Below, piece by piece: positions 12,307 through 40,945 of a DNA stretch of 64,000 nucleotides (position 1 is its first letter; each line of letters starts with the position of its first letter). Below the pieces are notes generated by a model, which saw only the letters and a program-made list of their open reading frames with translations, was not told where the DNA came from and did not search any database. Position numbers and translations under genes: made by a program. The stretch comes from an uncultured Ectothiorhodospiraceae bacterium (GTDB taxonomy: Bacteria > Pseudomonadota > Gammaproteobacteria > SZUA-152), in assembly GCA_964401355.1 (NCBI GenBank), contig CAYNYJ010000002.1, forward strand, positions 6,116 through 70,115. Direction: 5' to 3'.

Positions 12307-12307
12307 T

Positions 12308-15656: not shown

Positions 15657-16568
15657 ATGGCTGATCGCAGATTACAGGTATTTCACAGCGTCGCGCGCTT
15701 GTTGAGCTTTACCAAAGCCGCCGAATCGCTGCATATGACTCAACCTGCCGTCACCTTTCAAGTGCGTCAGCTGGAAGAGCATTTCAACACCCGCCTATTT
15801 GATCGCACCCACAACAAGATCAGCCTCACTGAGGCGGGGGAATGCGTGTATGCCCGTGCCGAGAAGATCTTCGAGATCTACGATGATTTGGAAAACAGTG
15901 TGCGCGCCCTCACCGGCGAGATCAGTGGGGTATTGATCCTGGGTGCCAGTACCACCATCGCCGAATACATGTTGCCGGCCCTGTTGGGCGATTTCAAAGA
16001 AAAGTACCCCGACGTCAACATTCGCCTCAAGGTGTCCAATACCGAAGGTATCGTCACCATGGTGGAAAATAATGTGATTGATCTGGGCGTGGTGGAGGCT
16101 CCAGTCACCAATAAAAATCTGGCTGTGGAAGCCTGTCGTACCGACCGTTTGGTCGCTATTACTCCGCCCGGCCATGACCTGGCGAAGGCCGGTAAAATTC
16201 CGGTGCGGGCCATCGCCGATTATCCTTTCATCTTGCGTGAAGAGGGTTCCGGTACTCGTGAAGTGATTGTCGATTATCTTAAAGAAGCCGGTGTCGATCC
16301 GGCCTCACTCAATGTGATTATGGAATTGGGTAGCCTGGAGGCGCTGAAGGGAGCGGTCGAGGCTGGCATCGGTATCAGCATTATTTCCCGGGCAACGTTG
16401 ATAAAGGAAATTAAACTGGGTTCTCTGGAAGTTATAGAGCTGGATCCACCCCTGGAGCGGCCGTTTTCTTTTGTCCACCAGAAACACAAATTCCGTCAAC
16501 GTGCCATGGATGAGTTACTGGAATTTGCGCGTAAATATTGTGAGACTCATCAAGGCATTGAAGAATAG
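15657..16568 (+). CDS. LysR-family transcriptional regulator
   Basis: N-terminal helix-turn-helix LQVFHSVARLLSFTKAAESLHMTQPAVTFQVRQLEE, followed by a LysR substrate-binding fold. Confidence 0.85.
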   Translation: MADRRLQVFHSVARLLSFTKAAESLHMTQPAVTFQVRQLEEHFNTRLFDRTHNKISLTEAGECVYARAEKIFEIYDDLENSVRALTGEISGVLILGASTTIAEYMLPALLGDFKEKYPDVNIRLKVSNTEGIVTMVENNVIDLGVVEAPVTNKNLAVEACRTDRLVAITPPGHDLAKAGKIPVRAIADYPFILREEGSGTREVIVDYLKEAGVDPASLNVIMELGSLEALKGAVEAGIGISIISRATLIKEIKLGSLEVIELDPPLERPFSFVHQKHKFRQRAMDELLEFARKYCETHQGIEE

Positions 16569-16642: not shown

Positions 16643-17038
16643 ATGAATTCCGCTGAAAAAAAGATTCTTGCAGTATTCAGAAAGCTGCCAACGGCCGAGC
16701 GTGAGACTTTACAGGCTTTTGCCGAATTTTTGACTGCGCGCCCCAATGAGCGAATACCAGAAATTATCCCTGAACCCCAGCTCATTCCTCGCGGGGAAAA
16801 AGAAAGTGTAGTGGCTGGCATCAAGCGACTTACGGCCAGTTACCCCATGTTAGATGATCCGCGGTTATTGAATGAAACCTCCGCCTTGATGACCCAGCAT
16901 GTGATGCAGGGCAAGGACCTCAACGAGGTGATTGACGAGCTGGAATTACTGTTTGCCCGGTTTTATCAGGAATTGCTTGATGAGCAGGTCGAGGTCGCTA
17001 CTGGGCAGGGGAAAGACCTCAATGGACAGGCCTCGTAA
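16643..17038 (+). CDS. Hypothetical protein (131 aa)
   Basis: ORF with no recognisable motifs. Confidence 0.4.
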   Translation: MNSAEKKILAVFRKLPTAERETLQAFAEFLTARPNERIPEIIPEPQLIPRGEKESVVAGIKRLTASYPMLDDPRLLNETSALMTQHVMQGKDLNEVIDELELLFARFYQELLDEQVEVATGQGKDLNGQAS

Positions 17039-17142
17039 AATTTTTGCAGGAGGGCGTGACCGGTTCCGGCAGAAAAAAATTTGATTTAAGGAAGGATTTG
17101 CCCTCTGATGATTGATATCACTTAAATATTCACTCCCCAGGC

Positions 17143-17170
17143 CTTGAATTTCTTATTTTCATCCTTATCA
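17143..17170 (+). promoter_or_regulatory. Sigma32-like heat-shock promoter (CTTGAAT-N14-CCTTATCA) upstream of groES
   Basis: Compared with the RpoH consensus CTTGAAA-N13-15-CCCCATNT. The -10 element is only a partial match. Confidence 0.35.
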
Positions 17171-19494: not shown

Positions 19495-21255
19495 ATGTCG
19501 GAACAATCCACTAAACCCAGTTGGACGGAGCTGCGCCAGCAGTACTGGCAGTTTGTGCAGTACGCATCGCCTGACAGGCGCTATTTTATGTTAGATATCG
19601 TCACTATCGTGATTTCTGTATTTACTAATACGGCGATGATCTGGTTGATGGGACAGCCGCTGAGCCTGATTCAGGCGGGAGAATATGAGGCCCTGATCGG
19701 CGTGTTGGGTTTGTTTCTCGGCGTCCTATTGGTTAATCAGGCTGCACAAATGGGCGGTGGCTGGTTAACTAACTGGTTGAATCTGCGCTTCATCGGGCGG
19801 GTACGAAATGCCATTATGTCGCGATTGTTAAGTTTGTCTTTTCCGGTAGCGGAGCAGTTGCCACGGGGCGATTTGCTGGCGCGCTTGAGTAATGATGTGG
19901 ATCGTATCAGTGCCATTCTGGTGGGGGCGCGTTTGATGCTGATCTCTCATTTACTGACCCTCACCTTGTATATCGGCATGTTGTTTTGGATCGATGTGCG
20001 TCTGGCGTTGATTGCGTTGGCGACGGTGCCTTTGTTTGTATTACATCAACGATTTTTTTCCGAGCGCAAGCGTCGTGCCACTGAGGGTTTTTTGAAAGCT
20101 AACGGGAAGTTGTTGGCCTTTGAAGAGCAGGGGCTGGCCAATCTGCGTGGCGTCAGTGCCAATGTTGCTGAGAGCCAAGTCACGGCCATGCACCAGAACG
20201 TGTTTGCCCGGACTTTCCGTTGGGCAGTGCGCGAAGGGGGGCTGGAGGTGGCCTTTGGGGTGAGTTTCACGGTGTTGATTTATGGGGTGGGGGTAATGAT
20301 TGCGCTGCTGGGTGTGGACGGCGTGCGCGATGGTTCGCTACCCGTGGGCTTGCTGGTGAGTTTCCTGCTGTACCTGGGGTATCTCACTGTGCCGGTGCGT
20401 GGCCTGGCGGAAATCACCTTTCAGTACGTCGGTAATGTACCCGCTACGCAGCGTATTCTGGAAATTATGAATGCCCAGCCTGCGGTGATGGACAACAGTG
20501 CGACAGCATTGGTCGTCAAAAAAGGGCGAATTGACATCGAAGCCCTGTCTTTTGCCTATCCCGGCGGAGAGAGCGTGTTGCACCACGCGCAATTGACGAT
20601 TCAGGGCGGCGAAACTGTGGCCTTGGTTGGGCCCAGTGGTTCGGGTAAATCCACCTTGGTCGCCTTGCTGCTGCGCTTTTATGATCCACAGCAGGGACGT
20701 ATTTTGGTGGATGAACAGGATTTACGCGATGTGAGCATTGCCTCGGTGCGTCAAAACATAGCAGTGGTGTGGCAGCAACCTTTTGTGCTCAACGATACGA
20801 TTCGTGCTCATCTGCGGATGGCCAAACCGGATGCCACCGAGCTGCAGATTATTGAAGCTTGTCAACGTAGCCATGCGTGGGAATTTATTGAGACCTTGCC
20901 GGCAGGGCTGGACTCCGTGCTGGGTGCCGGTGGTACGGAACTGTCTGGTGGCCAAAAACAGCGTCTGGCCATTGCTCAGGCTTTTTTGCGTGATGCGCCG
21001 ATCCTGATTCTGGATGAAGCTTCATCAGCGCTAGACAGCCAGTCTGAGCAGGTTATTGTGCAGGCGTTGGACGCATTACGTGCAGATCGCACGACATTAT
21101 TGATTGCGCATCGCCATTCGTCGATTCGCTCAGCGGATCGGGTGGTTTATTTTGAGGCTGACGGCACGCTCACCGTAGGCCGACACGATGAACTCATGGC
21201 GCAGCATCCGCAGTACCGCGAGGCTGTGCAATGGCAAACGACAGAACACGAGTGA
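19495..21255 (+). CDS. ABC transporter ATP-binding/permease fusion (MsbA-like exporter)
   Basis: An N-terminal 6-TM domain is followed by Walker A GPSGSGKST, the ABC signature LSGGQKQRLAIA and Walker B ILILDEA. Confidence 0.85.
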   Translation: MSEQSTKPSWTELRQQYWQFVQYASPDRRYFMLDIVTIVISVFTNTAMIWLMGQPLSLIQAGEYEALIGVLGLFLGVLLVNQAAQMGGGWLTNWLNLRFIGRVRNAIMSRLLSLSFPVAEQLPRGDLLARLSNDVDRISAILVGARLMLISHLLTLTLYIGMLFWIDVRLALIALATVPLFVLHQRFFSERKRRATEGFLKANGKLLAFEEQGLANLRGVSANVAESQVTAMHQNVFARTFRWAVREGGLEVAFGVSFTVLIYGVGVMIALLGVDGVRDGSLPVGLLVSFLLYLGYLTVPVRGLAEITFQYVGNVPATQRILEIMNAQPAVMDNSATALVVKKGRIDIEALSFAYPGGESVLHHAQLTIQGGETVALVGPSGSGKSTLVALLLRFYDPQQGRILVDEQDLRDVSIASVRQNIAVVWQQPFVLNDTIRAHLRMAKPDATELQIIEACQRSHAWEFIETLPAGLDSVLGAGGTELSGGQKQRLAIAQAFLRDAPILILDEASSALDSQSEQVIVQALDALRADRTTLLIAHRHSSIRSADRVVYFEADGTLTVGRHDELMAQHPQYREAVQWQTTEHE

Positions 21256-21664
21256 GCCGTTGCGGGAAACCGCAGTGATTGCCACTATCCATATTAAATG
21301 TTTGAGTTTTGCTGGTTAGCAGACGCTCCCCCCTCTTTACTATTTGCCCCTTCTTGCCCGGTGACGTCTATGGCAAGTGGTGGTTGCGACAGTTATCATT
21401 ATTGTATATAATTTAATCAGATTCAATGAGAAGGGTCGTAAGCAGTGTCGAAAATCTGACGCCTCGAATCGTGCACCCTAAGATCAAAATCGTACAGTTG
21501 ATGACGTATTGAACAACCGTGCAGGCGATGTGACCGCAGAATTTAATTTCTCTCTCAGTGAGGTTGACTGAAAATACTATCAGCAAGGGCGTTGGCCATG
21601 GGCTTATTCAGAGCCGTGGTGAGTGTGACTTTTTAATCCAGGTATTTTTGGTGCTGTGAGCGTC

Positions 21665-21781
21665 ATGCGCCGCTCGGTTATTAGCTCTTATGTCGACGGT
21701 ATCTCTGCGGGCTTTGCTGCGATAAATTTTTCTACCGGTGGCGTTGCCAACGGAGCTTCTGTCCTGGTCTGTGAAACGTAA
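21665..21781 (+). CDS. Candidate small peptide (38 aa: MRRSVISSYVDGISAGFAAINFSTGGVANGASVLVCET), a possible scaffold/precursor peptide for the downstream island
   Basis: ORF hand-translated from sequence. It lies about 180 bp upstream of the pqqD-like gene, has a Gly/Ala/Ser-rich C-terminal half ending in Cys-Glu-Thr, and only a weak ribosome-binding site. Confidence 0.2.
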   Translation: MRRSVISSYVDGISAGFAAINFSTGGVANGASVLVCET

Positions 21782-21882
21782 TGCCGTGTTTTTAAATGTT
21801 TGTATGTGTCGTGTCTGCGGTGCTCAACAGAGAAAAATCATATTGATATCCTCTTTTTTCAGCGAAAAATAGCGGGACAGTG

Positions 21883-21933
21883 ATGTTTAAATTCTTGCTG
21901 TCATATGGATGCCATATAAAAGTACAAAACTAA
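21883..21933 (+). CDS. Candidate micro-ORF (16 aa: MFKFLLSYGCHIKVQN) immediately upstream of the pqqD-like gene
   Basis: Hand-translated. It ends 30 nt before the PqqD-like start. By position it is analogous to pqqA in pqqA-D operons, but it lacks the PqqA E-x3-Y motif. Confidence 0.15.
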   Translation: MFKFLLSYGCHIKVQN

Positions 21934-21962
21934 ACGACTAAATATTTAAGGAGTATTGAACC

Positions 21963-22259
21963 ATGGAAGTCAATGCCAACACGGCTATTAACAATTTGCC
22001 AATGCAAGCGGCATTTTTGGATAATCGTTATTTGCAACATTTAGCCATTAGTGACAACGGTTTTGTCTTTGATCCCACCACAGGCCAAAGTTTTACCATG
22101 AATGAGATTGGCGTTGAATTGCTTCGCTTGTTTCAACAAGAAAGCAATATCGACACCATTGTGAGCTTGCAATATAAAAAATATAAAGTCGATACACAGG
22201 AAATTGAACGAGACATCGTGGAATTTGCCAGTAGTCTCAATCGACATTTTTATCGATGA
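21963..22259 (+). CDS. PqqD-family protein (RiPP recognition element / peptide chaperone)
   Basis: TMNEIGVELLRLFQQESNIDTIVSLQ...ERDIVEFASSL aligns with Klebsiella PqqD (LNETAAAILELVDGRRDVAAIIAEL...DDDVVEFLQ). The product is 98 aa with a strong AAGGAG ribosome-binding site. Confidence 0.7.
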   Translation: MEVNANTAINNLPMQAAFLDNRYLQHLAISDNGFVFDPTTGQSFTMNEIGVELLRLFQQESNIDTIVSLQYKKYKVDTQEIERDIVEFASSLNRHFYR

Positions 22260-23320
22260 GCAGCGTATTAACGATGAACATAACTGTTGCTATAACGGGG
22301 ATGAATTCTCAACCCGACAACCCCGGGCCTGGGTTGGCTGTTGCCCGGTGTTTAAAGGAGTCTGCGGAATTTAACGGTCGAATTATCGGTCTGGGTTACG
22401 ATGCGTTGGATGCAGGAATTTACCATAGCGAATACTGTGACGCAGGTTATTTATTACCTTACCCATCCAGCGAAAGCTTTGAACATGTTGACCGATTGCA
22501 ATCAATTCACGAAAAGGAACACATTGACGTATTGATTCCCTGTCTGGATTCGGAGATGCCCGGGATGATTCGTTTGCTTCCCTTGTTTGAAAAGATGGGG
22601 ATAAAAACCTGCCTGCCAACGTTGGAACAGCTGACAATGCGTAATAAAAATCGCTTGTCGGAATTGCTTGGCGACGGAGAAATGTCCTATCCCGAATCAA
22701 TTGATATCATCAATGTTGAATTTTTTCAAGGCTGTGAAAAGCAGGGTTGGACATATCCGTTTGTCGTAAAGGGCGTATTTTACGACGCAAAAATTGTTCA
22801 TAACATTGCGCAGGGTATTGCCGCATTTAACGCAATTTCTACTCAATGGGGTTTTCCGATAATTGTTCAGAAGCTCGTGCGTGGGCAGGAATACAACGTC
22901 GTCGCATTAGGTAATGGAGAAGGTGGCCTGGCGGGTATGGTTATGATGAAAAAAATGATACTGACCGAAAAAGGAAAGGCCAGTGCTGGAGTCAGTGTTT
23001 ATGATGAAGGCCTGCATCGGGTCTGCCTTGAAGTCATGAAAACACTGCGTTGGAAAGGGCCGATAGAATTCGAAGTGATGCGTGACAAACTTGGTAAGTA
23101 TCACCTTATCGAGATTAATCCCAGATTTCCGGCTTGGGTATATTTAACTGCTGGGGTGGGACAAAACCTCCCCATCAAATTGTTGAAGCTTATAGCCGGT
23201 GAGTCTATATCTGAGCTTCCTTCAACAAAAGCTGGGGTTTTGTTTATTCGGCACGCAATGGATTTAATAGTGACGATTGCCTCATTTGAGGCGGTCGCTA
23301 TTGAAGGTGGAACATCATAG
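22256..23320 (+). CDS. ATP-grasp family ligase
   Basis: YHLIEINPRFPAWVY is the ATP-grasp Mg/ATP motif (compare IEVNPR). PFVVKGVFYDAKIV is a central-domain lysine motif. The start overlaps the pqqD-like stop (ATGA). Confidence 0.7.
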   Translation: MSSVLTMNITVAITGMNSQPDNPGPGLAVARCLKESAEFNGRIIGLGYDALDAGIYHSEYCDAGYLLPYPSSESFEHVDRLQSIHEKEHIDVLIPCLDSEMPGMIRLLPLFEKMGIKTCLPTLEQLTMRNKNRLSELLGDGEMSYPESIDIINVEFFQGCEKQGWTYPFVVKGVFYDAKIVHNIAQGIAAFNAISTQWGFPIIVQKLVRGQEYNVVALGNGEGGLAGMVMMKKMILTEKGKASAGVSVYDEGLHRVCLEVMKTLRWKGPIEFEVMRDKLGKYHLIEINPRFPAWVYLTAGVGQNLPIKLLKLIAGESISELPSTKAGVLFIRHAMDLIVTIASFEAVAIEGGTS

Positions 23321-23417
23321 TCGTCGTTTTCGTTCTATTTGTCAGTTTGATGCCCGAATCCAGCGAGTTTCGTTAGAGAAAGAAGAATTTAATATTTTAT
23401 TTTTATAGGTGTGTTTA

Positions 23418-24902
23418 ATGAAAAATAATATTTCGCAACAAGAAGGGCAAGGCCAGGCAGAAATCACTTGGAGTAAGCCATCAATACTTCCATTGAAAGA
23501 TGGGACTATTAATAAGTTTGGTTCCAGGCCGTATGCAGAGACGCAGAGCGAGGTCGATGGTGTTGTCATCAATGATCTAATTGAAAAATATGGTTCGCCG
23601 CTTTTCGTCATTTCCGAAAAGAAGCAGCGTGATAATGCGCGCCGAATTCAGCGAGCATTCAGTTCGCGTTATCCCCATGTCCAATTCGGTTGGTCCTACA
23701 AAACAAATTACCTGGATGCTGTCTGTAATGTTTTTCATCAGGAAGGATTGTGGGCAGAAGTTGTTTCTGAATTTGAATACCAAAAAGCAAGAAATCTAGG
23801 GGTTCCCGGGCATAAAATAATCTTTAATGGTCCACATAAATCCAGGGGGATTCTGGAACAGGCCATTGAAGAAGGTGCGCTCATTCATATTGATCATCTG
23901 GATGAACTATTTCTTATCGACACGATTTCAGCTGAAAAGAAAAAAATGGTTTCCGTTGCTATTCGTCTCAATTTCGATACGGGTTATACCGAAAATTGGG
24001 GTCGCTTCGGATTCAATATTGAATCGGGCCAAGCCTTTGATGCCGCAGTGCATATTTCGAATAGCCAACACCTTGAACTGGTTGGGCTGCATAGCCATAT
24101 TGGCACGTTCATTACTGATGGTCGTGCCTATGTCAGTCAAATTAAAATAATGTGCAAGTTTATGGATGAAGTGGAATTAAAAACAAATTGTTCCATTGAT
24201 TACATTGATATTGGCGGGGGCTTGGCTTCGATGAATTCTCTGCAAGGAGCTTATTTACCGCCAGAACAATATATTCCCAGTATTGAACAATATGCGACGT
24301 TAATTTGTGATGCCTTGTTAAAGGAGACGCGGTCACGCAATGCAAATAAAGATAAAGGTTTGTTGTTGATACTGGAAACAGGCCGGGCAATGATTGATGA
24401 TGCTGAAGTATTGATAACTTCCGTCGTTGCCAATAAGCAATTGCCGGATGGTCGTCGTGCTTCAATTATGGATGCTGGTTTAAACCTGTTATTTACCAGT
24501 TTTTGGTATGACCATAAGATAGTGCCGACCCGGGAATTGCCGGGAGTGGCAGAAGAAACCGTGCTTTATGGGCCGCTGTGCATGAACATCGATGTGGTGA
24601 GAAAAAGCATTAAATTGCCACCGATGAAAATAGGAGAGCCCATGGTGATCAAACAGGTCGGTGCTTATAACAATACACAATGGATGCAATTTATTGAATA
24701 TCGTCCGAATGTAGTCATGGTTCATGAAGATAAATCTGTGTCGATTGTCAGAGAGGCCGAAAATTTGCAAACAATGATTGCACAGGATCGGTTACCGGCT
24801 CATTTATCTGACCCTTTCGTAGAGGTTTCCAAAGGTAAGGCAGCGCTTGTCGCTGAGGCGACGTTGACGGAAGTTGTTTTGGTTGAGTCCAATTCTACGT
24901 AA
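23418..24902 (+). CDS. PLP-dependent decarboxylase, Orn/DAP/Arg decarboxylase family (fold type III, diaminopimelate-decarboxylase-like)
   Basis: SPLFVISEKKQRDNARRIQRAF...QFGWSYKTNYLDAVCNVFHQEGLWAEVVSEFEYQKA...IIFNGPHKS contains the PLP-lysine region and the conserved Gly-rich PLP-phosphate-binding motif IDIGGGL. Confidence 0.75.
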   Translation: MKNNISQQEGQGQAEITWSKPSILPLKDGTINKFGSRPYAETQSEVDGVVINDLIEKYGSPLFVISEKKQRDNARRIQRAFSSRYPHVQFGWSYKTNYLDAVCNVFHQEGLWAEVVSEFEYQKARNLGVPGHKIIFNGPHKSRGILEQAIEEGALIHIDHLDELFLIDTISAEKKKMVSVAIRLNFDTGYTENWGRFGFNIESGQAFDAAVHISNSQHLELVGLHSHIGTFITDGRAYVSQIKIMCKFMDEVELKTNCSIDYIDIGGGLASMNSLQGAYLPPEQYIPSIEQYATLICDALLKETRSRNANKDKGLLLILETGRAMIDDAEVLITSVVANKQLPDGRRASIMDAGLNLLFTSFWYDHKIVPTRELPGVAEETVLYGPLCMNIDVVRKSIKLPPMKIGEPMVIKQVGAYNNTQWMQFIEYRPNVVMVHEDKSVSIVREAENLQTMIAQDRLPAHLSDPFVEVSKGKAALVAEATLTEVVLVESNST

Positions 24903-27111
24903 ACCAGGGGCTGTTCCATTGCTAAAGACGAACTGGTGTCATTTTAAGGATATTGCCAAAGCTTATTCCGGCATTTTATTTTTGGAGCACCCCTTGGTTG
25001 GGGTATTGTTCATTGCACTGACTTTTTGGTCGCCGTTAACGGGTATGGCTGGACTGTTGTGCGCGCTGACAAGTATGTTGATATGTGTATTTTTAAAGCT
25101 GCCCCATATTGGTAGCAAAGCACATATTCTGAATAGTGTGTTGACGGGCTTATCACTGGGTGCCTTGTTTCAACTCAGTGGCCAGGCTTGGGCGTTTGTT
25201 ATTGTTGGCGGATTACTCACGACATTTTTGTCTATTCTGATGGCTGATATATTGTGGCGTCGAACAGGGCTGCCAGCCGTGTGTCTTCCCTTTATTGTGA
25301 GTGCTGCAATATTATCCCTGGTGGTCCGGGAATATGTACCGAGCACCGACTTTAGCGCGATTGGCTGGTTGACTGATGTCTGGATTCATCCCTGGGTGGA
25401 TTTATTTTTTAGAACCTTGTCCGCAACCCTATTTTCACCAAATCCTGTGATTGGGTTATTGGTGTTCATCGCTATCATTATTCAATCCCGTTACCTGGGG
25501 TTGCTAGCGATTGCTGGTTTTTCGTTGGGACTTTTTTTACTTAATATACTGTCTGGCAGTCATCCGACAGAATTTTATGTGTGGACGTGTTTTAACTTTG
25601 TTCTTACCGCATTGGCCGTGGGTGGAATTTATACTGTGCCTGATCGGAGCAGTTTTATTTATGCCATGTTTGGCGTATCGGTATCGGTATTCTTTGTTAT
25701 CGTGATACAAGATTTGATGCTGGTATATCATTTACCGGTCATGGCATTACCTTTTGTGGCCGCAACTTTATTGTGCATTGCTGTGCTTCAAAGACGTAGC
25801 AGTATGGAATCGCCGTGGTTGTGTGCCACTCCGGGGCTGCCGGAAAATGATTATGAGCAAAGACGCTTGGCGCGTACGCGATGTGGCGAACCTAACAGCA
25901 TCCCCTTGCTGTTACCTTTTTACGGCACCTGGAATGTGTATCAGGGTTTTGATGGCCGCCACACTCATAAGACGCCCTGGAATCATGCCGTTGATTTTTA
26001 CATTACTGAAAAAGGCTTAAGTTATTGTGCTCAAGGCTTTCGACTTGAGGATTACTATTGTTTTGGATTACCGATTATATCGCCGGTCTATGGTGAAGTG
26101 ATAGCAACCGCGGATTCGGTGTCTGACAATATTCCAGGCGCAGTTAACGTGGATGATAATTGGGGTAATTTTATCCTTATTTATTTGAGCACCGGGCATT
26201 GCATTATGTTGGCGCATCTCAAGCATTTAAGTATTAAAGTTAATGTGGGTGATCAGGTGACACCAAAAACGGAGTTGGCCGCTTGTGGTAATTCGGGGCG
26301 CTCACCGCAACCCCATTTACATATTCATTTGCAGAAAGATGCAGAGATTGGAAGTCCGACACAGTTATTCCACTTTTGCAGTGTTCTGGAAAATGTGGGG
26401 ATACAAAATACACACTATAAGCTGATCAGCAGACCCGTGGATAACGTCAATATTCAGGCCGCAGCTCATGCTCGGGGGTTGTCCAATATTCACCAACACC
26501 TCCCCGTGGGTCGCTATTTCACTTACAAGCTAATAGATCCGGAGACCAACGCCAGCAGCGTACGTCGCCTATTGGTGGAGGTGACGTTAATGGGCCAGTT
26601 CCGTTTGGTAAGTGACTCTGGTGCCAGTTCCGCTTTTGAGGAAGTCAATGGTGTACTTGCCTTTTATGACAGGCAAGGTCCAGCAGATCAATTATTGGAT
26701 ATGTTGTTACTGTCCTATGGTTTGACGCCATTAACAGAACTTGCGCAACAATGGCAGGATTCACCGTCGGTAAAATTGTTGCCGTTGCAGAGTGGGGAAA
26801 AAATATTGCTGGCATTCCGTTTCATTTTGGGTGTTGGGCTTGAGAGCCAATATCAGCGTCAGTGGGATTCTGCAAAGAATATGTGGGTACAACGCAGTAC
26901 TCATACATTGCGAATTGGCCCGCGTACTTTGGTGGCCGAAGCCGTTATAGAATTGGACCGGGCATTTGTCAGTAATGATATGACGTTGTCATTTAACGGT
27001 TGCACCTGGCGTGCACAATTATTGAATAATGGTTTAATAAAAGATCATGGTATACCGGGCTGGCGTAAACAGCATGTTGATGACGCTAGCTCAAACTTGT
27101 CGACGGTTTAG
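24874..27111 (+). CDS. Fusion protein: N-terminal urea-transporter (UT)-like polytopic membrane domain + C-terminal M23 (LytM/lysostaphin-type) metallopeptidase-like domain
   Basis: N-terminal YSGILFLEHPLVGVLFIALTFWSPLTGMAGLLCALTSML follows the UT-family pattern, and there are about 10 predicted TM helices. C-terminal WNHAVDF ... GNSGRSPQPHLHIHL matches the M23 HxxxD / HxH zinc-ligand motifs. Confidence 0.6.
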   Translation: MFWLSPILRKPGAVPLLKTNWCHFKDIAKAYSGILFLEHPLVGVLFIALTFWSPLTGMAGLLCALTSMLICVFLKLPHIGSKAHILNSVLTGLSLGALFQLSGQAWAFVIVGGLLTTFLSILMADILWRRTGLPAVCLPFIVSAAILSLVVREYVPSTDFSAIGWLTDVWIHPWVDLFFRTLSATLFSPNPVIGLLVFIAIIIQSRYLGLLAIAGFSLGLFLLNILSGSHPTEFYVWTCFNFVLTALAVGGIYTVPDRSSFIYAMFGVSVSVFFVIVIQDLMLVYHLPVMALPFVAATLLCIAVLQRRSSMESPWLCATPGLPENDYEQRRLARTRCGEPNSIPLLLPFYGTWNVYQGFDGRHTHKTPWNHAVDFYITEKGLSYCAQGFRLEDYYCFGLPIISPVYGEVIATADSVSDNIPGAVNVDDNWGNFILIYLSTGHCIMLAHLKHLSIKVNVGDQVTPKTELAACGNSGRSPQPHLHIHLQKDAEIGSPTQLFHFCSVLENVGIQNTHYKLISRPVDNVNIQAAAHARGLSNIHQHLPVGRYFTYKLIDPETNASSVRRLLVEVTLMGQFRLVSDSGASSAFEEVNGVLAFYDRQGPADQLLDMLLLSYGLTPLTELAQQWQDSPSVKLLPLQSGEKILLAFRFILGVGLESQYQRQWDSAKNMWVQRSTHTLRIGPRTLVAEAVIELDRAFVSNDMTLSFNGCTWRAQLLNNGLIKDHGIPGWRKQHVDDASSNLSTV

Positions 27112-27144
27112 CGATTGAACGGTTTATTTTTCTGAACAATAAAA

Positions 27145-28524
27145 ATGGAATTGGAGTTCATGTTTTACCCATCGATGACTATAAAAATGTACTGGTCCAT
27201 TTCTTCAGTCGGGTTTACGATAGCGTTATTGTTGCTCACAGTTAATCCAGCTCTGGCAATGGACATAGAAGAGATTTATGAACTGGCGCTGGAAACCGAC
27301 CATGTGATTCGGAAGGCAACAGCGATTCGTGCCGGTTCGCAAGAAGCTGTTCAGCAAAGCAGAGCCAGATTCTGGCCGAAAATGTCCGCCAGTACCCTTT
27401 ATACGCAAAACTCACAAGATCGCACTGTGCATGATTTTACCAATACCGTGCTTCTAAATAGTAAGCCTGAGTTTGCCAGTAGCGGCTACAGCATAAACAT
27501 TACCCAGCCCCTGTTTGATTACGATGCGATTGTTAATAATCAACAAGCGTGGGCGACACATGAATTGGCAGATGTTCAATACAATGAAACGGGTCATTTC
27601 CTGGTGCTGCGGGTTATTACCGCTTACATGGGGGTATTGTCTGCCAAACAAGGAATTCACTATCGCGAACTGGAAGTACAGGCGCTAAAAAAACAACTTG
27701 AGCGAATGGAGTACCGCTTGAATTTGGGTATTAGCGCAAAAATTGATGTCAGTGAGGCACAGGCTGGGTATGACCAGGCGTTGGCGAATCGCACCAGTGC
27801 CAGCATCCGTCTGTCTATTACCAATGAAGCCTTACGTCAAATTACGGGTCAGTTGCACGATAATCTTGATCCGCTCCAAGTTGCAGCATCTTTCAATATG
27901 CCAAATCCCAGTAATCTGACTTTTTGGATTAAAATGGCACATGAAAATAATTATCAACTTCAAATTGCACAATCCCAGCTTAAGCTGGCACAGATCGGGA
28001 TTAAAAAACAGGGTGCCTCACGTTTTCCTTATCTTTCACTGATAGCCACGTATAATTATTACAATAATCTGGCATTAGACTACGCTGGCGTTGAATTGGA
28101 AACGGGTTCCATTACGGCACGTTTGGATTGGGATTTCTATCAAGGCGGGTTGGTCAGTTCCCGCATTCGTCAAGCGAAATATTATAAAGATCAGGTTGAT
28201 ATTTCTCTGCAACAGCAGAAAAGTCTGGTGGAGCGACAAGTCCGTGATGCGTATTACATCCTGGTGGGTGGAGTGAATCGTATCGGTGAGTTGGAACAAT
28301 CCATAAAATCGCAAAAAGTGCTGTTGGAAGCAAACAAGGCTGGCTATGAAACGGGAGCCAGAACCAGTTTTGATGTTTTGAATGCGCGGACAAATCTATA
28401 CACTTTACGGAGAAAGCTGGCGCAAGCTCGACATGACCATGTATTACATCATGCTATTTTGAAATACCGCGCAGGCATGCTTGTGGTTGAGGACTTGGCA
28501 TACATCAACCAAAGCTTGGAATAG
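27145..28524 (+). CDS. TolC-family outer-membrane efflux channel
   Basis: N-terminal signal peptide, two repeated alpha-helical coiled-coil/beta-barrel halves of TolC/OMF topology, and a C-terminal YRAGMLVVEDL characteristic of outer-membrane factors. Confidence 0.7.
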   Translation: MELEFMFYPSMTIKMYWSISSVGFTIALLLLTVNPALAMDIEEIYELALETDHVIRKATAIRAGSQEAVQQSRARFWPKMSASTLYTQNSQDRTVHDFTNTVLLNSKPEFASSGYSINITQPLFDYDAIVNNQQAWATHELADVQYNETGHFLVLRVITAYMGVLSAKQGIHYRELEVQALKKQLERMEYRLNLGISAKIDVSEAQAGYDQALANRTSASIRLSITNEALRQITGQLHDNLDPLQVAASFNMPNPSNLTFWIKMAHENNYQLQIAQSQLKLAQIGIKKQGASRFPYLSLIATYNYYNNLALDYAGVELETGSITARLDWDFYQGGLVSSRIRQAKYYKDQVDISLQQQKSLVERQVRDAYYILVGGVNRIGELEQSIKSQKVLLEANKAGYETGARTSFDVLNARTNLYTLRRKLAQARHDHVLHHAILKYRAGMLVVEDLAYINQSLE

Positions 28525-28671
28525 GGTGCTTCAAATTTAGCCAATATTTCCCTGTGGTCTTGTTCGTGTTGGCGCGGCACGGCGAATTCATGACTCAGTT
28601 TCGGTCTGTTCGAAGACAGCAGGGGCTAATAACAGAAGGGTAGTCAATTCTCGGGTACTACATGACAGCGA

Positions 28672-28860
28672 TTAGATTTGTTCAGAAGCCTGCACCAGCC
28701 TGTTTTTTATTGTATTAAAAAGCTGTACGAACACTTTGTCTAGGTGTTCCTTGTTCATATTTTTCGGCTTGGTGTGCCCCCGTTGACGTAAGGCCATTGT
28801 GTTTTTGAGCTTGGAAATGTGACTGGAGTGCAGAGCCCGTTCACCGGAAGAAAAATACAC
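28672..28860 (-). CDS. Small basic hypothetical protein (62 aa)
   Basis: ORF only; Lys/His-rich. Confidence 0.25.
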   Translation of the reverse strand: MYFSSGERALHSSHISKLKNTMALRQRGHTKPKNMNKEHLDKVFVQLFNTIKNRLVQASEQI

Positions 28861-29341
28861 AGAAATATTTCTTGAGGCATGACGGGCTAGCGAGTTGCGC
28901 GAGTCTTTTTTCAGGATTTTATTATCTATATCCGGGGCTATTCAAGGAATTAAGTCGCTGCAAATACGCTAATTTTGGTGTCTTCGTGGGGAAACTGATT
29001 TATTGCCTGCTTGCTGAAAATAGCGCGGGAAACGGCTGCCGTGGATTCGTGCGGTATACCAAAATGAGGGGCTGCGCGGAGTATAATTGGGTTAACGTTG
29101 AGTTTAAAATCGGTTGTTCAAAAACAGGCATTCCAAAAAAAACAAGAAAGGAACCCTATAAAACTGCTGATAGAGTTCCTTTCCATCTTTTTTACGTGGG
29201 GTTTTAAGCCACATAGGTGTAAAGCTACATGCGAAAAGCAGAATGTAGGTTACACAGGCGTTGCTTTCGCAACAACATCCGTTACCAGATGCAGACTACA
29301 CGAGTGTGTAGCAGTATAGTTTGTTTAGCTTGAGAGTCGGC

Positions 29342-29491
29342 TTACATGCCGCCGCCCATGCCTCCAGCGCCCATACCGGCACCCATGCCGCCGCCCATGC
29401 CGCCGCCCATGCCGCCCATACCCATTCCGCCCATGCCGCCTCTGCCACCCATGCCGCCTCGACCACCACCCATTCCACCCATTCCACCCAT
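29342..29491 (-). CDS. Gly/Met-repeat peptide (49 aa: [49 protein letters not shown]; 59 aa if the upstream ATG at 29521 is used)
   Basis: Hand-translated on the minus strand; it is missing from the ORF track because it is under 60 aa. A strong GGAGG Shine-Dalgarno sits 8 nt upstream of the internal ATG. The peptide is composed almost exclusively of (G)GM repeats. Confidence 0.5.
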   Translation of the reverse strand: MGGMGGMGGGRGGMGGRGGMGGMGMGGMGGGMGGGMGAGMGAGGMGGGM

Positions 29492-30103
29492 GATAGAACC
29501 TCCAAAGTAGTTGTATTGCATTTACATGGTTGGCCAACGTCATGTACAGGATGCCCAGTATTTTGATGCTGACTAAAATACCGTGGTATCAACAGTACGT
29601 GCAGTTAGCACGAAATCAAGCAGAAACAACTCTGGTTGATCCCATTGTCTGCCACAACTGCGGCGGACAACGTCGAAAAAAGTAACAGAGTGATCATTTA
29701 TTGTCAATTTAAAGGATGGAGGTCAGCAGTGAAAATAAGGGTTGTAACTTATTGATTTTTAAAGATGATAAGAATTTTTCTTTGTAGATATCGCTGATGA
29801 TACTGAGTTAAATAGCAATATTACGCATAAGAAATAGTCTGTATAGGTAATTTATTACCGCAAACATGTTTTTTGGTAATTAATAACAATATATTGTAAG
29901 CGTTAATGTTCGCATGTCTGGCGAGTATTTCAGAAAAAGTGATTTATGCATCAACCGGGTGCATTGTGATGTGATTGATGCGGACATTTTTGCAAGCCCG
30001 TGTTATGTGCTTGTTTTATGACATAATCGTTTCGCCGATGTGTTTGTTAACGGACGCTTAACGGTGGCATTGAGCCAAAAAAATAAAAAAAGGATTTTGT
30101 CAT

Positions 30104-33100
30104 ATGTTTATGCTTGCGGCCGCATTTTTACTCTTGTCAGGTATTGCCAGTCTGACTTATCAGGTGGTTTGGGTCAGGTTGCTAGGACTGAGTATGGGGT
30201 CGACCAGCGCTTCGATCAGTACCGTGTTAGCGGCGTTCTTTTTGGGCTTGGCTCTGGGGAGTTACCTGGCTGAGCGTATAACCCGAAATCGTATCAATGA
30301 TCTCAGAGCGTATATTGTGCTGGAACTGATCATTGGTCTGTCGGGTCTGGCCTTGCTTCCCATTTTGTTGAATCTCGATGCAATCATGGCGGCTACCCCG
30401 GCGTTGGGTGCAACCATTCCCATGAAATTTGCGGTGACCACCGTGTTGTTGCTGATTCCCACGGTGTGCATGGGGGCCACTTTCCCTGTTATGGCATCGT
30501 TGCTCATTCGTCGTAAAGATGAAGTGGGTGTCCGTGTCAGCCAACTTTATAGTTTAAACACGGCAGGTGCGGTACTGGGGGCGGCTCTGGCGGGTTTCTT
30601 TTTTGTGCCGAACTGGGGTTTGGATGGCGCGGTTTATATTGCCTTTTCGTTTAATTTATTGATTGTAGTACTGGCTATTTATCTCAACCAAAAAATTTCC
30701 TTGCCGCCAATCGAAGTGTCGACGGTTGAAGCCAAATCGGCTGGTGCTGCTGTCTCAAACTCAATAACGGAAGAAGCCCCTTTGCGTGGACGGGCGCTGA
30801 TAGTGTTGTTTGCCACTGGCCTTGTTGCCATCGCAACGGAAGTCGGCTGGACCAAGTACCTGTCGATTTTTACGGGAACCACTATTTATGGTTTTGCCGC
30901 GATACTGACGATATTTCTCACGGGTATCGCTGCAGGTTCATGGGCGATTAAATCATATATTGAGCGTATGCAACGGCCAGAATTGTGGATGGCCTTCGGG
31001 CTGGTATTGTTGGGTAGCTCGTTATTGTTGACGCGCGCGGGTTTGACCTGGGTCCCCGCCATTTATCAAGCAATGAACCATTTCCCGGTAGAGCCATGGT
31101 TGAAGCACGGGGTGAAATACACTTTTGTGTTTGTGTTGCTGTTTCCTCCGACGTTTTTGTTTGGTGCATTGTTTCCAATAAATCTGAGGCTTTACTGCGG
31201 CAATTTGCAGGGTATACGGGCACGTATTGGCAAGGCTTATGCGGTGAATACGGTCGCCAGTATTTTTGGTTCGATTATGGCGGGTTTTTGGTTGATCCCA
31301 TATTACGGCACCGATGTGTTGCTAACGGTTATGGCGCTGGTGTTATTGGTATTGCCGTTGTTGTTTGTGCCGGTGCTAACGACACCTGTGGCGAAGCTGT
31401 CGATTACCGCATTCGCAGTTCTGGCGCTGTTGAGCAGTGGGTTGTTACCGCATCTGAGTTACAAGGATATGATCACTTCGGTGCAATATGACGGTGAGTC
31501 TTATGCTGGCCAAGAACCCAAATTTTTGTTTTTGAAGGAGGGTAAGGCGGGCGTCATTAGTATGATCACTTATAACGACCGGCACGTGAGGCTGCAAAAC
31601 AATGGTCTGAATGAATCTTTCATTGATCTTGAAGATGAAAATAATGTGTTACTGGTTGAAAGCTTGTTGGGTCTGCTGCCGTACATGCTGCATGACGATC
31701 CCAAGTCGGCTTTTGTGGTGGGTTTTGGGGGTGGCATTACCACCAAAGCATTGACCTTTACAAAATTGGAATCCATTCGTGTGGTCGAGCTGGAACCGGC
31801 GGTGATCGACGCTGGGCGAGCGATCATCGGTGGCCGAGAAATTCTTGCGTTGCAAGACCCGCGAGTGACGCTCACGCTGAATGATGCGCGTAATACCTTG
31901 TTAACCGAAAGCACAAAATACGACATTATTGCCTCGCAGCCTTCACACCCTTGGCTGGCGCGTGCGTCGAATATCTTTACCAAAAACTTTTTTGAGCTGG
32001 TTAAGTCACGGCTCAATGACGGCGGTATTTACGGTCAGTGGGTGAATTTGTTTCATATGGATGCTACTACTCTGAAATCACTGTTACGCGCTTTCTACGA
32101 AGTGTTTCCGCATGGCATGACCTTCGCCAATCTTGAGAGTGGAGATTTCATGATGTATGGCTCTGTTTCGCCGATAATTTTTGATTTTGCAAAAATTGAA
32201 CAACGTTTGAATGAACCCAAAATAAAGACGGCACTGAATTATCACGGTATTTATTATGCCCGGGATTTAATGTGGTACTTTGCGCTCTCGCGTGATCAGG
32301 CGTTGGCGGCATCGATGGATGTGCCGGCTAACACCGATACCAATATTCTTTCTGAAGTACGGTTGTCGGCTATTGATAATAAACCGTCGCCCGAAGAAAG
32401 CCCTTATAAATTCTTAATCGATAATTACACCTTTAATGTGCGCCCTTACTTTGCTACGGATGAGGCTGCGGATCGTATTTACCAGTTGGGTACCTATTTT
32501 CTGGTTGAGAAGAATGAGCAGGACATTGCGCAGTATTCGGCGGATCAATTAAAAGAAATTGATCCGGTCAAGGCGCGTGGCATTGAATATGAAAAACATT
32601 GGCATAATTTTGAATATGATGAAACGGATGCATTGTATATACAGCATGAACAGTGGCCGGATCGCACTCACATGCAACAGGCTTTGGCATTGGTGGATCG
32701 GAATCGTTATGACGAGGCCACGGCCGTGCTACCCCGTGTGGAAGTGGAAGGAATGCGTCGTATTCTGGCAGCACGGCTGTTATTTGATCAGCAGCGTTTT
32801 GATGAGCTTGTGGCCGTGGATACACAATATGATGCCGAAAAACTCTGGCGTTTGTCGGCCTTGGCGAGAAAGGATTTGATCACTGCGGGCAGTGAACTGC
32901 ATGCGTTGGTGCAGCGAGTTTCACCCGGGCTTCCGCAGCTGCGGGTTTTGGCGGGATACTACGGGGTGATTAATGACGATAAACAACTGGACCGGGTGGC
33001 GCGTTTGATTGTTCAGCAGCAAAACAAAGAAATTGAGCGTATTCAGCAGTTATTGACTGATGCAATAGAGGCTGAGCAAGTGCAGTATTCACAAAATTTG

Positions 33101-33268
33101 CTCAAGCGTATTGAGATGCTTAACCCGGAAGAGAACTACAAACTGAAAGAATTGCGAGGCAAAGTCGCGAAGCTTGTTGTTTCTCCGATCCAGGAAAATG
33201 ATACCGGCGATCAAGAGGTCACGATAAATAACGGTGAAAAGCACACGCTCTCACTATACTCAAGTTAG
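30104..33268 (+). CDS. Fused polytopic membrane domain + spermidine-synthase-like (SpeE-fold aminopropyltransferase/methyltransferase-like) domain + C-terminal helical repeat region
   Basis: The N-terminal half (about 460 aa) has many TM helices. VVGFGGGITTKAL...IRVVELEPAVIDAGR...YDIIASQPSHPWLARASNIFTKNFFELVKSRLNDGGIYGQWVNL is a spermidine-synthase-like Rossmann core. The product is 1054 aa. Confidence 0.65.
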   Translation: MFMLAAAFLLLSGIASLTYQVVWVRLLGLSMGSTSASISTVLAAFFLGLALGSYLAERITRNRINDLRAYIVLELIIGLSGLALLPILLNLDAIMAATPALGATIPMKFAVTTVLLLIPTVCMGATFPVMASLLIRRKDEVGVRVSQLYSLNTAGAVLGAALAGFFFVPNWGLDGAVYIAFSFNLLIVVLAIYLNQKISLPPIEVSTVEAKSAGAAVSNSITEEAPLRGRALIVLFATGLVAIATEVGWTKYLSIFTGTTIYGFAAILTIFLTGIAAGSWAIKSYIERMQRPELWMAFGLVLLGSSLLLTRAGLTWVPAIYQAMNHFPVEPWLKHGVKYTFVFVLLFPPTFLFGALFPINLRLYCGNLQGIRARIGKAYAVNTVASIFGSIMAGFWLIPYYGTDVLLTVMALVLLVLPLLFVPVLTTPVAKLSITAFAVLALLSSGLLPHLSYKDMITSVQYDGESYAGQEPKFLFLKEGKAGVISMITYNDRHVRLQNNGLNESFIDLEDENNVLLVESLLGLLPYMLHDDPKSAFVVGFGGGITTKALTFTKLESIRVVELEPAVIDAGRAIIGGREILALQDPRVTLTLNDARNTLLTESTKYDIIASQPSHPWLARASNIFTKNFFELVKSRLNDGGIYGQWVNLFHMDATTLKSLLRAFYEVFPHGMTFANLESGDFMMYGSVSPIIFDFAKIEQRLNEPKIKTALNYHGIYYARDLMWYFALSRDQALAASMDVPANTDTNILSEVRLSAIDNKPSPEESPYKFLIDNYTFNVRPYFATDEAADRIYQLGTYFLVEKNEQDIAQYSADQLKEIDPVKARGIEYEKHWHNFEYDETDALYIQHEQWPDRTHMQQALALVDRNRYDEATAVLPRVEVEGMRRILAARLLFDQQRFDELVAVDTQYDAEKLWRLSALARKDLITAGSELHALVQRVSPGLPQLRVLAGYYGVINDDKQLDRVARLIVQQQNKEIERIQQLLTDAIEAEQVQYSQNLLKRIEMLNPEENYKLKELRGKVAKLVVSPIQENDTGDQEVTINNGEKHTLSLYSS

Positions 33269-34580: not shown

Positions 34581-35201
34581 ATGGGAGTGAAGAACCGTTT
34601 AATCAATCCGAAAGCACGACGTCGAGGCTTGCTGGGTGTCGCTGGGGCTGGGCTTATGTGTCTGGCAATGTTGCTGATGTCGTCAGTGGCGATGGCAGTT
34701 AAATATGATGTGGTGCCGCCGGTCGGAACGCATCAGGGGGAGGATGTGCCTCAGCCCATCGAGTTTCCTCATAATGTTCACGTTAAAGATAATGACATTA
34801 ACTGCATGTACTGCCATACCTATGCGCGACGCAGCGCAGTGGCCGGTATTCCTCCGACCAGTAAATGCATGGGCTGCCACAAGGTGATTGCGACAGACAA
34901 GCCGCGCATCCAGAAGCTCACCAAATACTGGCAGGACAAAATATCACCCGCTTGGAAGAAAGTGCACGACCTGCCGGACTTTGTGCATTTTACCCACGAG
35001 AAACATTTGAAGACCTTGGTGTTTGATCGGGAGTTTCCGGTTGAAGATGTGAAGGAAGTTTGTGCCTTTTGTCACGGTGATGTGGAAAATATGACGGTAG
35101 CGCACAAAGTGAAACCGTTGAATATGGGCTTTTGCGTTAATTGCCATATTGCGAACAAAGAACTGGGTGCCCCGGGCGACTGCTGGAAGTGCCACAAGTA
35201 A
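34581..35201 (+). CDS. actA: Alternative Complex III subunit ActA (pentaheme cytochrome c)
   Basis: Five CXXCH motifs (CMYCH, CMGCH, CAFCH, CVNCH, CWKCH) in 206 aa with an N-terminal signal anchor. It is the first gene of the act operon. Confidence 0.8.
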   Translation: MGVKNRLINPKARRRGLLGVAGAGLMCLAMLLMSSVAMAVKYDVVPPVGTHQGEDVPQPIEFPHNVHVKDNDINCMYCHTYARRSAVAGIPPTSKCMGCHKVIATDKPRIQKLTKYWQDKISPAWKKVHDLPDFVHFTHEKHLKTLVFDREFPVEDVKEVCAFCHGDVENMTVAHKVKPLNMGFCVNCHIANKELGAPGDCWKCHK

Positions 35202-35264
35202 TCGTCGCGCAAATACAAAGGTGTTAACGATGAGCAAGCGAATTAATAGAGTGGAATTACGACT

Positions 35265-37481: not shown

Positions 37482-37483
37482 TT

Positions 37484-38326: not shown

Positions 38327-38395
38327 GGCTTTTTATCTCTCGATTTCACGTTCGGTTACAACCAGAGCCGTCAAAAAGATTAAGGTGATATAACA

Positions 38396-39811: not shown

Positions 39812-40335
39812 GCAAGCGACGTATGTTGGCCTTATTCAGCGATTTCGACGAAGCGCATGCCGCGATCGCTGATATACGCCGTAATGAAATTCCGGGAGTC
39901 ACGGTTGATGATGTGACCATGATATCGCCCATCGAACATCCTGAAGTGGAAGATGTGTTGGGTGAGCGTCCCGTGCATATTCAGAAGTTCACCTTGTTTG
40001 GCGCATCATTCGGGCTGATTTTTGGCTTCTTCTTTCTGTCCGCTGCGCAGGCGGCATTTATGGTGCAGCCGCAGGGCGGCAAGGCGGTTATTTCGTTGCC
40101 GTCGAATTTCGTTTTAATGTATGAAATGTTGATTTTCTTTGCGGTGTGGTCAACGGTTATTTCGTTTATTTTCTTATCGGGTCTGTTGCGGAAACGCAGT
40201 TCTCTTTATTCCGAGAAAGTCAGTTTGGATCAAATTGCCATTATTGTAGAATTTGATGAAAAAAATACTGAACCGATGAAGACTTTGTTTCAAAAGCATA
40301 AGACCTTGGAAATACGTGAAGAGGTAGTTAAATGA
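39808..40335 (+). CDS. actD: Alternative Complex III subunit ActD
   Basis: 175 aa with a C-terminal membrane anchor. The gene is translationally coupled to actC and actE. Confidence 0.65.
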   Translation: MSKRRMLALFSDFDEAHAAIADIRRNEIPGVTVDDVTMISPIEHPEVEDVLGERPVHIQKFTLFGASFGLIFGFFFLSAAQAAFMVQPQGGKAVISLPSNFVLMYEMLIFFAVWSTVISFIFLSGLLRKRSSLYSEKVSLDQIAIIVEFDEKNTEPMKTLFQKHKTLEIREEVVK

Positions 40336-40907: not shown

Positions 40908-40945
40908 CTGACATGACAAGAAAAGATAAAAGGGGTAACGGGTAA

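Follow-up and report, generated by a model that had tools for sequence, protein, structure and literature searches.

The 64,000-nucleotide window analysed here, the whole stretch taken from contig CAYNYJ010000002.1 of an uncultured Ectothiorhodospiraceae bacterium, carries directly behind an MsbA-like ABC half-transporter gene a low-GC block of about 7.4 kb (21256 to ~28650) with five genes. They encode a PqqD-family protein, an ATP-grasp ligase, a decarboxylase dependent on pyridoxal 5'-phosphate (PLP), an inner-membrane fusion of a urea-transporter (UT) fold with an M23 metallopeptidase domain, and a TolC-family outer-membrane channel (Table 1). We read the block as an acquired operon that forms a self-contained biosynthesis-and-export cassette for an amine-tagged product, and we give this reading a probability of roughly 0.6; that the operon was inserted horizontally right after the stop codon of the ABC gene, without mobility genes, is very probable. 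The island as such is an ordinary outcome, which the comparison with empty sites in relatives turns into a clean, datable operon insertion. Its cargo matters more. In a strictly syntenic operon of four to six genes, a chaperone for peptides and a ligase forming amide bonds are combined with a decarboxylase of the conjugate type, and the outer-membrane exit is interchangeable. Should the chemistry proposed below hold, the cassette would represent a novel class of product and put the UT fold to a new use.

The same cassette is present in many other genomes. A scan of metagenome contigs gave 80 further loci (comparison loci carry L numbers here), so that metagenomic contigs and metagenome-assembled genomes (MAGs) together hold at least 84. 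The order PqqD, ATP-grasp, decarboxylase, UT-M23 is kept in 51 of the 51 loci that have at least 3.2 kb of sequence upstream of the UT-M23 gene. Downstream of it, among the 60 loci with at least 1.8 kb, a protein of 300-335 aa is encoded in 49, a tetratricopeptide repeat (TPR) protein of ~200 aa in 51 and TolC in three, and three loci have none of these. All-against-all clustering of the neighbours revealed no further gene family that recurs next to the cassette, and the anti-phage defence models of PADLOC matched none of the five cassette proteins. Our literature search found no paper describing the operon and no pairing of an ATP-grasp enzyme with a PLP decarboxylase that depends on a RiPP recognition element (RRE; RiPP, ribosomally synthesised and post-translationally modified peptide). 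WgkC was set aside, being a PqqD homologue of the tryglysin system and no description of the operon. The cassette is a widespread, conserved and uncharacterised operon.

The PqqD-family protein contains the conserved motif LAxSxxGFVFDPxxGxSFxxN, scores under all NCBIfam subfamily cut-offs, and has a stop codon that overlaps the start of the ATP-grasp gene (ATGA). At three loci the PqqD domain and an entire TetR domain form one fusion protein of ~270 aa (L088 6635-7453, L091 6586-7404 and L114 1497-2297), which hints at a regulatory or ligand-sensing link. The family profile of the ATP-grasp ligase, compared with solved structures, matched 2PN1 (1e-14), the large chain of carbamoyl-phosphate synthase (1e-10), PylC (2e-4) and Ddl (6e-4). 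For the decarboxylase, the best match in the PDB was FslC, the N-citrylornithine decarboxylase (7KH2, 2e-58), followed by diaminopimelate (DAP) decarboxylases (2e-37) and BtrK (7RU7 and 2J66, ~1e-22). Its scores stay below the NCBIfam equivalog cut-offs for FslC (232 vs 500 bits) and LysA (210 vs 298 bits); in fact, the ligase and the decarboxylase both fall under every NCBIfam cut-off. The substrate of FslC is an amino acid joined via its side chain to an acyl group, and the position of an ATP-grasp gene directly upstream fits a scheme in which ligation is followed by decarboxylation. The decarboxylase fold is known to act on carrier- or peptide-tethered residues in the BtrJ/BtrK/BtrI set of butirosin and in the N-terminal domain of MccE of microcin C.

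Nine relatives of the UT-M23 fusion are 71-84% identical to it and hundreds are at or below 48%, nearly all of them from uncultured Gammaproteobacteria. The UT domain scores 142.4 bits (cut-off 25) against Pfam UT, aligns to the urea channel dvUT (3K3F) over 277 residues, and retains both LPxxxxPF repeats and both pore phenylalanines. Databases name the fusion a urea transporter, though the polar positions of the dvUT pore are replaced throughout the family. Among 30 homologues, the Thr of LTAPF is exchanged for Cys, Ser, Val, Asn or Ala, and the Thr of LTWPF for Ala in 30 of 30; the Gln of GQVMF becomes Ala, Thr, Asn, Gly, Ser or Asp, and the Glu of GEVMF Ala, Ser or Val. In the structures of dvUT and UT-B these polar residues coordinate urea, and their family-wide replacement makes it probable that the pore is not urea-selective. 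In the M23 domain, the HxH motif (HLHxH), the His of LAHL and the Asp are present in 30 of the 30 homologues, and an invariant His lies nine residues upstream of the Asp. A profile of the C-terminal domain retrieved 162 cluster representatives (50% identity) among 1.84 billion; apparent short fragments aside, almost all measure 650-790 aa, the length of the UT-M23 architecture. The predicted model of the full-length fusion reached a pTM of 0.55, too low to read domain packing. The known topology of UT proteins, together with an Arg-rich linker after the last UT helix, suggests that the M23 domain and the putative LolA-like C-terminal domain lie in the cytoplasm. The combination of UT and M23 has been listed, merely as a domain combination, in a 2026 survey (PMC12998343). 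As a side observation, some UT-M23 and ABC homologues (P0027, P0061, P0200 and P0210) carry the label 'Kaarinaea lacus', which the NCBI taxonomy treats as a cyanobacterium of the Nostocales, and have gammaproteobacterial MAGs as nearest relatives; these sequences may come from a heterotroph in the assembly of a non-axenic culture.

The last position of the cassette differs between clades. TolC is found in the window clade (window, L002, L003, L043 and L044), where it holds the place of the pair formed elsewhere by the 300-335-aa protein and the TPR protein. Both members of the pair have signal peptides, and the larger one has W or F as its last residue in 16 of the 17 sequences aligned, a feature of outer-membrane beta-barrels; it gave no Pfam match and no PDB match by sequence or profile. 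The exchange of barrel plus TPR for TolC is a non-orthologous replacement of the outer-membrane exit, and TolC being an exit duct argues that the system exports something. About half of the putative barrels contain a variable Gly-rich loop insert, several of which are Gly/Met-rich (GGGGMGGMG, GAGGMGKSGK; examples at L004 12162-13169, L053 10515-11492 and L061 6131-7138). The window also encodes, at 11116-15538 on the plus strand, a resistance-nodulation-division (RND) pair of a membrane-fusion protein and an AcrB-like pump that has no adjacent outer-membrane gene and is followed by a LysR regulator. The island TolC is the only TolC-like gene among the annotated open reading frames (ORFs; 226-41980) and could also serve this pump.

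Composition, the empty sites of relatives, cassette synteny, domain identities and the alternation of TolC with the barrel/TPR pair are observed. The chemistry, substrate, direction of transport and membrane topology that we infer for the cassette run as follows. The PqqD protein, translationally coupled to the ligase, would present the substrate, for which a peptide or carrier from a gene elsewhere is the most likely candidate, and the ATP-grasp enzyme would attach an amino acid to it via an amide bond. The FslC-like enzyme would then strip the alpha-carboxylate of the attached residue and leave an amine-terminated, polyamine-like adduct. In the inner-membrane fusion, the M23 domain would process this adduct and the LolA-like pocket hold it, and the product would pass through or alongside the re-tooled UT-fold pore. 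TolC would take it over the outer membrane, and in other clades the dedicated barrel with its periplasmic TPR partner would do so. Export-coupled ligation and decarboxylation is plausible, with the odds about even; that the substrate is a peptide is a guess that we would sooner bet against. Rather doubtful is the strongest version, in which the cassette represents an RRE-guided pathway of a new class that places a decarboxylated amino acid on a peptide or carrier and employs the UT fold as an exporter with its own M23 maturation protease and LolA-like holding domain, a previously undescribed trans-envelope system common in marine-sediment Gammaproteobacteria.

Several observations weigh against this scheme. 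The 84 loci yielded neither a precursor nor a carrier gene within 3 kb of the cassette ends, and an unlinked precursor is possible. In 50 loci, the 450 bp upstream of PqqD offered no candidate among ATG-initiated ORFs of 12 aa or more, and when 4881 ORFs of 15-100 aa from the surroundings of 83 loci were clustered, no family was common across clades. The ATP-grasp ligase has no close characterised relative, and the TetR-PqqD fusions also fit a regulatory role of the PqqD domain. In the M23 domain, the first zinc-ligand motif departs from the canonical form (HxxD, not HxxxD) and its His is replaced by Tyr in eight of 30 homologues, so that peptidase activity is not assured. The cytoplasmic placement of the M23 and LolA-like domains is a tentative one, drawn from the known UT topology and the Arg-rich linker, and the cassette encodes no periplasmic adaptor for TolC.

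The same gene set can be read without any peptide, as a small-molecule pathway resembling the siderophore routes that are independent of nonribosomal peptide synthetases (NIS). In such a pathway the ATP-grasp enzyme would stand in for the NIS synthetase and join a carboxylic acid to the side chain of ornithine, lysine, diaminopropionate or serine, and the FslC-like enzyme would decarboxylate the conjugate, as in rhizoferrin, staphyloferrin B and vibrioferrin; the product would leave through the UT pore and TolC, with PqqD as an adaptor or regulator. The closeness of the decarboxylase to FslC, the lack of a precursor ORF in the 84 loci and the existence of TetR-PqqD fusions agree with it, as does the fact that UT pores conduct small amides. 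However, the PqqD-family proteins characterised so far bind peptides, no IucA/IucC synthetase, siderophore receptor or TonB-dependent uptake gene is found among the cassette ORFs or their recurrent neighbours, and an M23 peptidase and a LolA-like pocket would have no obvious role for a small hydrophilic product. We regard this pathway as possible rather than probable.

The cargo itself had to be revised at one point. The first-pass annotation had listed a PqqD-like protein, an ATP-grasp ligase, a PLP decarboxylase, a UT-M23 fusion, a TolC-like channel and a Gly/Met peptide; the first five stand as cargo, and the sixth proves to be a gene of the flank. In the window it encodes a peptide of 49 aa (MGGMGGMGGGRGG...GGMGGGM). 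The family consists of free-standing genes for peptides of 17-56 aa made almost wholly of Gly and Met, like the (GGM)n tail of GroEL, with strong Shine-Dalgarno sites in similar contexts and nearly always a C-terminal GGGM. Homologues lie beside the orthologue of the ABC gene in L123 (9908-10054), L124 (7797-7898), L125, L126 (12115-12282), L127, L128 (two copies, 17006-17164 and 16211-16321), L129 (14121-14252) and L006 (two copies, 7694-7870 and 12202-12291), all of them cassette-free. The number of repeats differs even between the near-identical contigs L126 (55 aa) and L127 (17 aa), and the window is near-identical to the JGI metagenome contig Ga0348266_1000859 (L001), with small indels in the Gly/Met repeat and close to it. 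A homology search with the peptide gave no matches, probably owing to low complexity, and our literature search found nothing on free-standing Gly/Met peptide genes. The gene is a conserved small member of the groESL/ABC/DegP/HSP20 locus, and its synteny beside the ABC gene in cassette-free relatives led us to reject it as cargo or precursor of the island, a correction to the earlier view.

A related proposal would make the same peptide the substrate of the cassette, bound by PqqD, modified at its C-terminal GGGM by the ligase and decarboxylase, trimmed by an M23 domain of the glycyl-glycine type and then exported. The M23 enzymes lysostaphin and LytM do cut Gly-Gly bonds, and in three of 84 loci, namely the window, L002 and L046, the cassette has a Gly/Met gene no more than 0.5-0.8 kb away, L046 being a distant cassette (48% identity) in unrelated flanks and the sole independent pairing of the two. 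Flank synteny accounts for the proximity in the window and in L002, in seven loci without a cassette the gene invariably accompanies the ABC/HSP20 locus, and the other cassette loci have no such gene in the fetched flank (up to 10 kb where the contig allows). We consider this substrate quite unlikely.

The acquisition of the operon is visible first in its composition. The first-pass annotation had described the island as AT-richer than its surroundings, and this was borne out by sliding-window GC and tetranucleotide analysis: among 114 windows of 7.4 kb, the segment 21501-28900 ranked last on two counts, GC (0.440) and tetranucleotide correlation with the remaining sequence (r = 0.598), which makes it the most atypical 7.4 kb of the window. 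GC averages 0.511 over the window and ranges over 0.42-0.465 between 21 and 30 kb and 0.52-0.556 between 18 and 21 kb. The GC at third codon positions (GC3) of the five cassette genes, in the order from 21963 to 28524, is 0.39, 0.45, 0.40, 0.46 and 0.45, the lowest contiguous run, set against a range of 0.51-0.69 elsewhere (0.58 for groEL, 0.60 for the ABC gene and 0.53 for the SpeE fusion gene), with only three further genes of the window below 0.50. The cassette equals the GC of its host in L003 (0.42) and L004 (0.36) and lies below its flanks in the window and in L002, a pattern that fits acquisition from a lower-GC relative. The composition of the window is heterogeneous, with a second low-GC block at 5.1-9.8 kb, values below the window mean at 30-35 kb and up to 0.55-0.62 at 50-64 kb. 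The second block (5092-9805, minus strand, GC 0.45-0.49) encodes a LodA-like L-lysine epsilon-oxidase (6281-8380), a LodB-like flavoprotein (5092-6216) and a 456-aa protein without Pfam match, and may be another acquired operon.

The comparison with relatives supports the proposed horizontal acquisition. Orthologues of the ABC gene at 71-85% identity adjoin groESL, DegP, HSP20 and the Gly/Met gene, and in L123 and in L126/L127 the block is missing between the msbA-like and the SpeE-fusion genes, with flanks that are colinear on both sides. L123, whose ABC protein is 83% identical, has the ABC gene, the Gly/Met gene on the minus strand and the start of the SpeE fusion, with a gap of ~1.7 kb between ABC and SpeE. 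L126/L127 (ABC 77%; from a MAG labelled Ectothiorhodospiraceae) continue from the ABC gene and the minus-strand Gly/Met gene into the SpeE fusion, Usp, cytochrome c7, a Mo-oxidoreductase, an FeS protein and NrfD, exactly the order of the window from 30.1 to 39.8 kb. Over the empty-site relatives, the distance from ABC to SpeE is ~1-1.7 kb. Other relatives fill the position with DegP-HSP20 (L124, L129) or with TetR, an oxidoreductase of the old yellow enzyme type (Oxidored_FMN), DegP and HSP20 (L128), and in the more distant L006 (ABC 54%) groESL and the ABC gene are accompanied by a second ABC gene. In these gene orders the insertion site is a variable slot in a conserved proteostasis locus that reads groES, groEL, ABC, slot, Gly/Met, SpeE fusion, Usp and alternative complex III. 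The cassette also occurs in other surroundings. In L003 its neighbours are NnrS on one side and unrelated genes on the other. In L002 (6574-13703) it stands where the close relative L124 (2594-7692) has ABC-DegP-HSP20, with flanks of 81-92% nucleotide identity and breakpoints adjoining the Gly/Met gene and HsdS of a type I restriction-modification system, which looks like a clean segment replacement.

The ends of the insertion could be placed by alignment. By nucleotide alignment the left junction is the stop codon of the ABC gene (21255). The non-coding start of about 700 bp described earlier is indeed there (707 bp), whereas the description of this leader as promoter-rich fails, with 20 sigma-70-like sites against 19.2 +/- 4.7 expected; a single good one (10 of 12 matches) lies at 21384-21412. 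Neither blastn nor tblastx matched the leader to any fetched locus. The right end had been placed at 29.6-30.1 kb, which is too far downstream, as homology to the DNA that follows the ABC gene of relatives already resumes at ~28650-28690. Against L123, in the DNA 50-250 bp past its ABC gene, the junction falls at ~28653 with MAFFT, 28687 with tblastx and 28786 with blastn, and homology with L126 and L128 resumes at 29117-29138. The match of the cassette to L002 stops exactly at the stop codon of TolC.

Some results tell against a straightforward insertion. A tRNA scan found no tRNA in the whole window, and no integrase-like or transposase domain was found in its ORFs. There are no flanking repeats above chance at the island ends and no target-site duplication; a short duplication, CAGYGATT, at both junctions was rejected as too weak to count as one. 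A search of the plasmid collection did not find the cassette; the matches were limited to isolated M23 domains and a single, unrelated ATP-grasp protein of Streptomyces. In addition, the cassette proteins of the window and L002 share 62-86% identity, akin to the 77% of the ABC protein, values at which transfer among relatives and ancient presence with relocation are indistinguishable. This similar divergence, and a slot that gains and loses other genes too, would suit a block that was ancestral at the site and deleted in the relatives, its low GC being a gene-specific composition. We find such a history highly unlikely, as five of the six ABC-orthologue contexts examined, including the closest (83%), have no cassette, the drop in GC3 of 0.13-0.2 is restricted to the five cassette genes, the cassette sits in other flanks in L002 and L003, and the left leader has no counterpart in any relative. 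With classical genomic islands, linked to tRNA genes and bearing integrases, the inserted operon shares its atypical composition, its absence from close relatives and a cargo that is discrete and the size of an operon; it differs in having no tRNA, integrase, transposase or direct repeat and in being only 7.4 kb long, so that the term islet, or operon insertion into a variable slot, describes it better.

Each known analogue shares one or two features with the cassette and differs in the rest. The BtrI/BtrJ/BtrK set of butirosin likewise combines an ATP-grasp enzyme, a PLP decarboxylase of the same fold (BtrK is among the PDB matches) and a small substrate-handling partner. Here, however, the partner is of the PqqD/RRE type and not a phosphopantetheinyl carrier, the similarity to BtrK is far below that to FslC, aminoglycoside genes are missing and the cassette has its own trans-envelope export components. 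With FslA/FslC of rhizoferrin and the NIS decarboxylases SbnH, PvsE and AcsE it has in common the conjugate-then-decarboxylate logic and FslC as best solved relative, but the score is below the FslC cut-off, ATP-grasp and PqqD replace the IucA/IucC-type synthetase, and there is no uptake receptor. RRE-dependent RiPP pathways (PqqD/PqqE, lasso peptide B1/B2 and the PLP domain of MccE in microcin C) also couple a discrete PqqD to a modifying enzyme and bring a peptidase domain and an exporter into the operon; they differ from the cassette, in which none of the 84 loci has a precursor gene alongside and PqqD lies under the NCBIfam subfamily cut-offs. Barrel plus TPR pairs (AlgE/AlgK, PgaA, BcsC, PelB) and TolC-dependent export resemble the ends of the cassette, which in most clades are a barrel-like and a periplasmic TPR protein and in the window clade TolC, whereas a glycosyltransferase, a polysaccharide synthase and a membrane-fusion adaptor are absent and the barrel has no Pfam or PDB match. 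The urea channels dvUT and UT-B share the ten-helix fold, the LPxxxxPF repeats and the two pore phenylalanines; here the Thr, Gln and Glu positions are replaced and the channel is fused to an M23 and a putative LolA-like domain. A literal reading of the database entries ('urea transporter', 'murein DD-endopeptidase MepM', with Pfam matches to UT and M23), by which a channel for urea uptake carries a peptidoglycan endopeptidase domain and lies beside unrelated amino-acid metabolism genes (lysA-like and carbamoyl-phosphate-synthase-like), is scarcely credible given that four of the four dvUT positions checked are substituted across the family, that no locus has a urease or urea carboxylase gene, that six genes including an outer-membrane exit component are strictly syntenic, and that the decarboxylase and the ligase miss every NCBIfam cut-off.

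Table 1. Coordinates of the inserted operon and of its flanks in the window.
Feature	Position	Strand	Basis and remarks
MsbA-like ABC half-transporter (flank)	19495..21255	+	Pfam ABC_membrane, ABC_tran; downstream of groES/groEL
Left end of the island, 707-bp non-coding leader upstream of PqqD	21256..21962	.	No convincing ORF
PqqD-family (RRE-type) protein, 98 aa	21963..22259	+	Pfam PqqD, 43.5 bits (cut-off 23.4)
ATP-grasp ligase, 354 aa	22256..23320	+	Pfam ATPgrasp_Ter, 29.8 bits
PLP decarboxylase of the Orn/DAP/Arg fold, FslC-like, 494 aa	23418..24902	+	Pfam Orn_Arg_deC_N, Orn_DAP_Arg_deC; ATG start at 23418
Inner-membrane fusion, 730 aa: UT fold, M23 metallopeptidase domain, putative C-terminal LolA/lipovitellin-like half-barrel	24919..27111	+	Likely TTG start at 24919, giving the length seen in relatives
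TolC-family outer-membrane channel	27145..28524 (start 27145 or 27160)	+	TIGR01844, 248 bits (cut-off 225); Pfam OEP, 158.7 bits, two repeats
Right end of the island; junction between 28525 and ~28690	28525..28650	.	Alignment to relatives
Conserved intergenic flank with bidirectional terminator hairpin (~29146-29200)	28651..29341	.	Identity of 84% to L126/L127, of 73-76% to L123 and L128
Gly/Met-repeat peptide gene (flank)	29342..29491	-	49 aa from an ATG with GGAGG 7 nt upstream; 59 aa from the ATG at 29521
Membrane-fused spermidine-synthase-like protein (SpeE fusion, flank)	30104..33268	+	NCBIfam MFS_SpdSyn, 137.6 bits (cut-off 40); syntenic in L123, L126, L128

Two parts of the flank deserve mention. 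The region 29138-29320, which in the minus-strand reading lies just 3' of the stop codon of the Gly/Met gene, has 84% identity to L126 and is thereby better conserved than the coding genes around it (73-79%). It folds into three small conserved hairpins followed by a terminator, and one GNRA loop varies between GAAA, GUAA and GCAA. A scan with Rfam gave no match for this region, which could be either a structured 3' untranslated region or a small RNA. Further downstream, after the SpeE fusion and Usp, the window encodes on the plus strand (34581-41980) an alternative complex III-like operon composed of cytochrome c7, a Mo-oxidoreductase-like protein, an FeS protein, NrfD, ActD and a cytochrome c. 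The first four of these genes are syntenic in L126/L127, and the first two are shown by L129.

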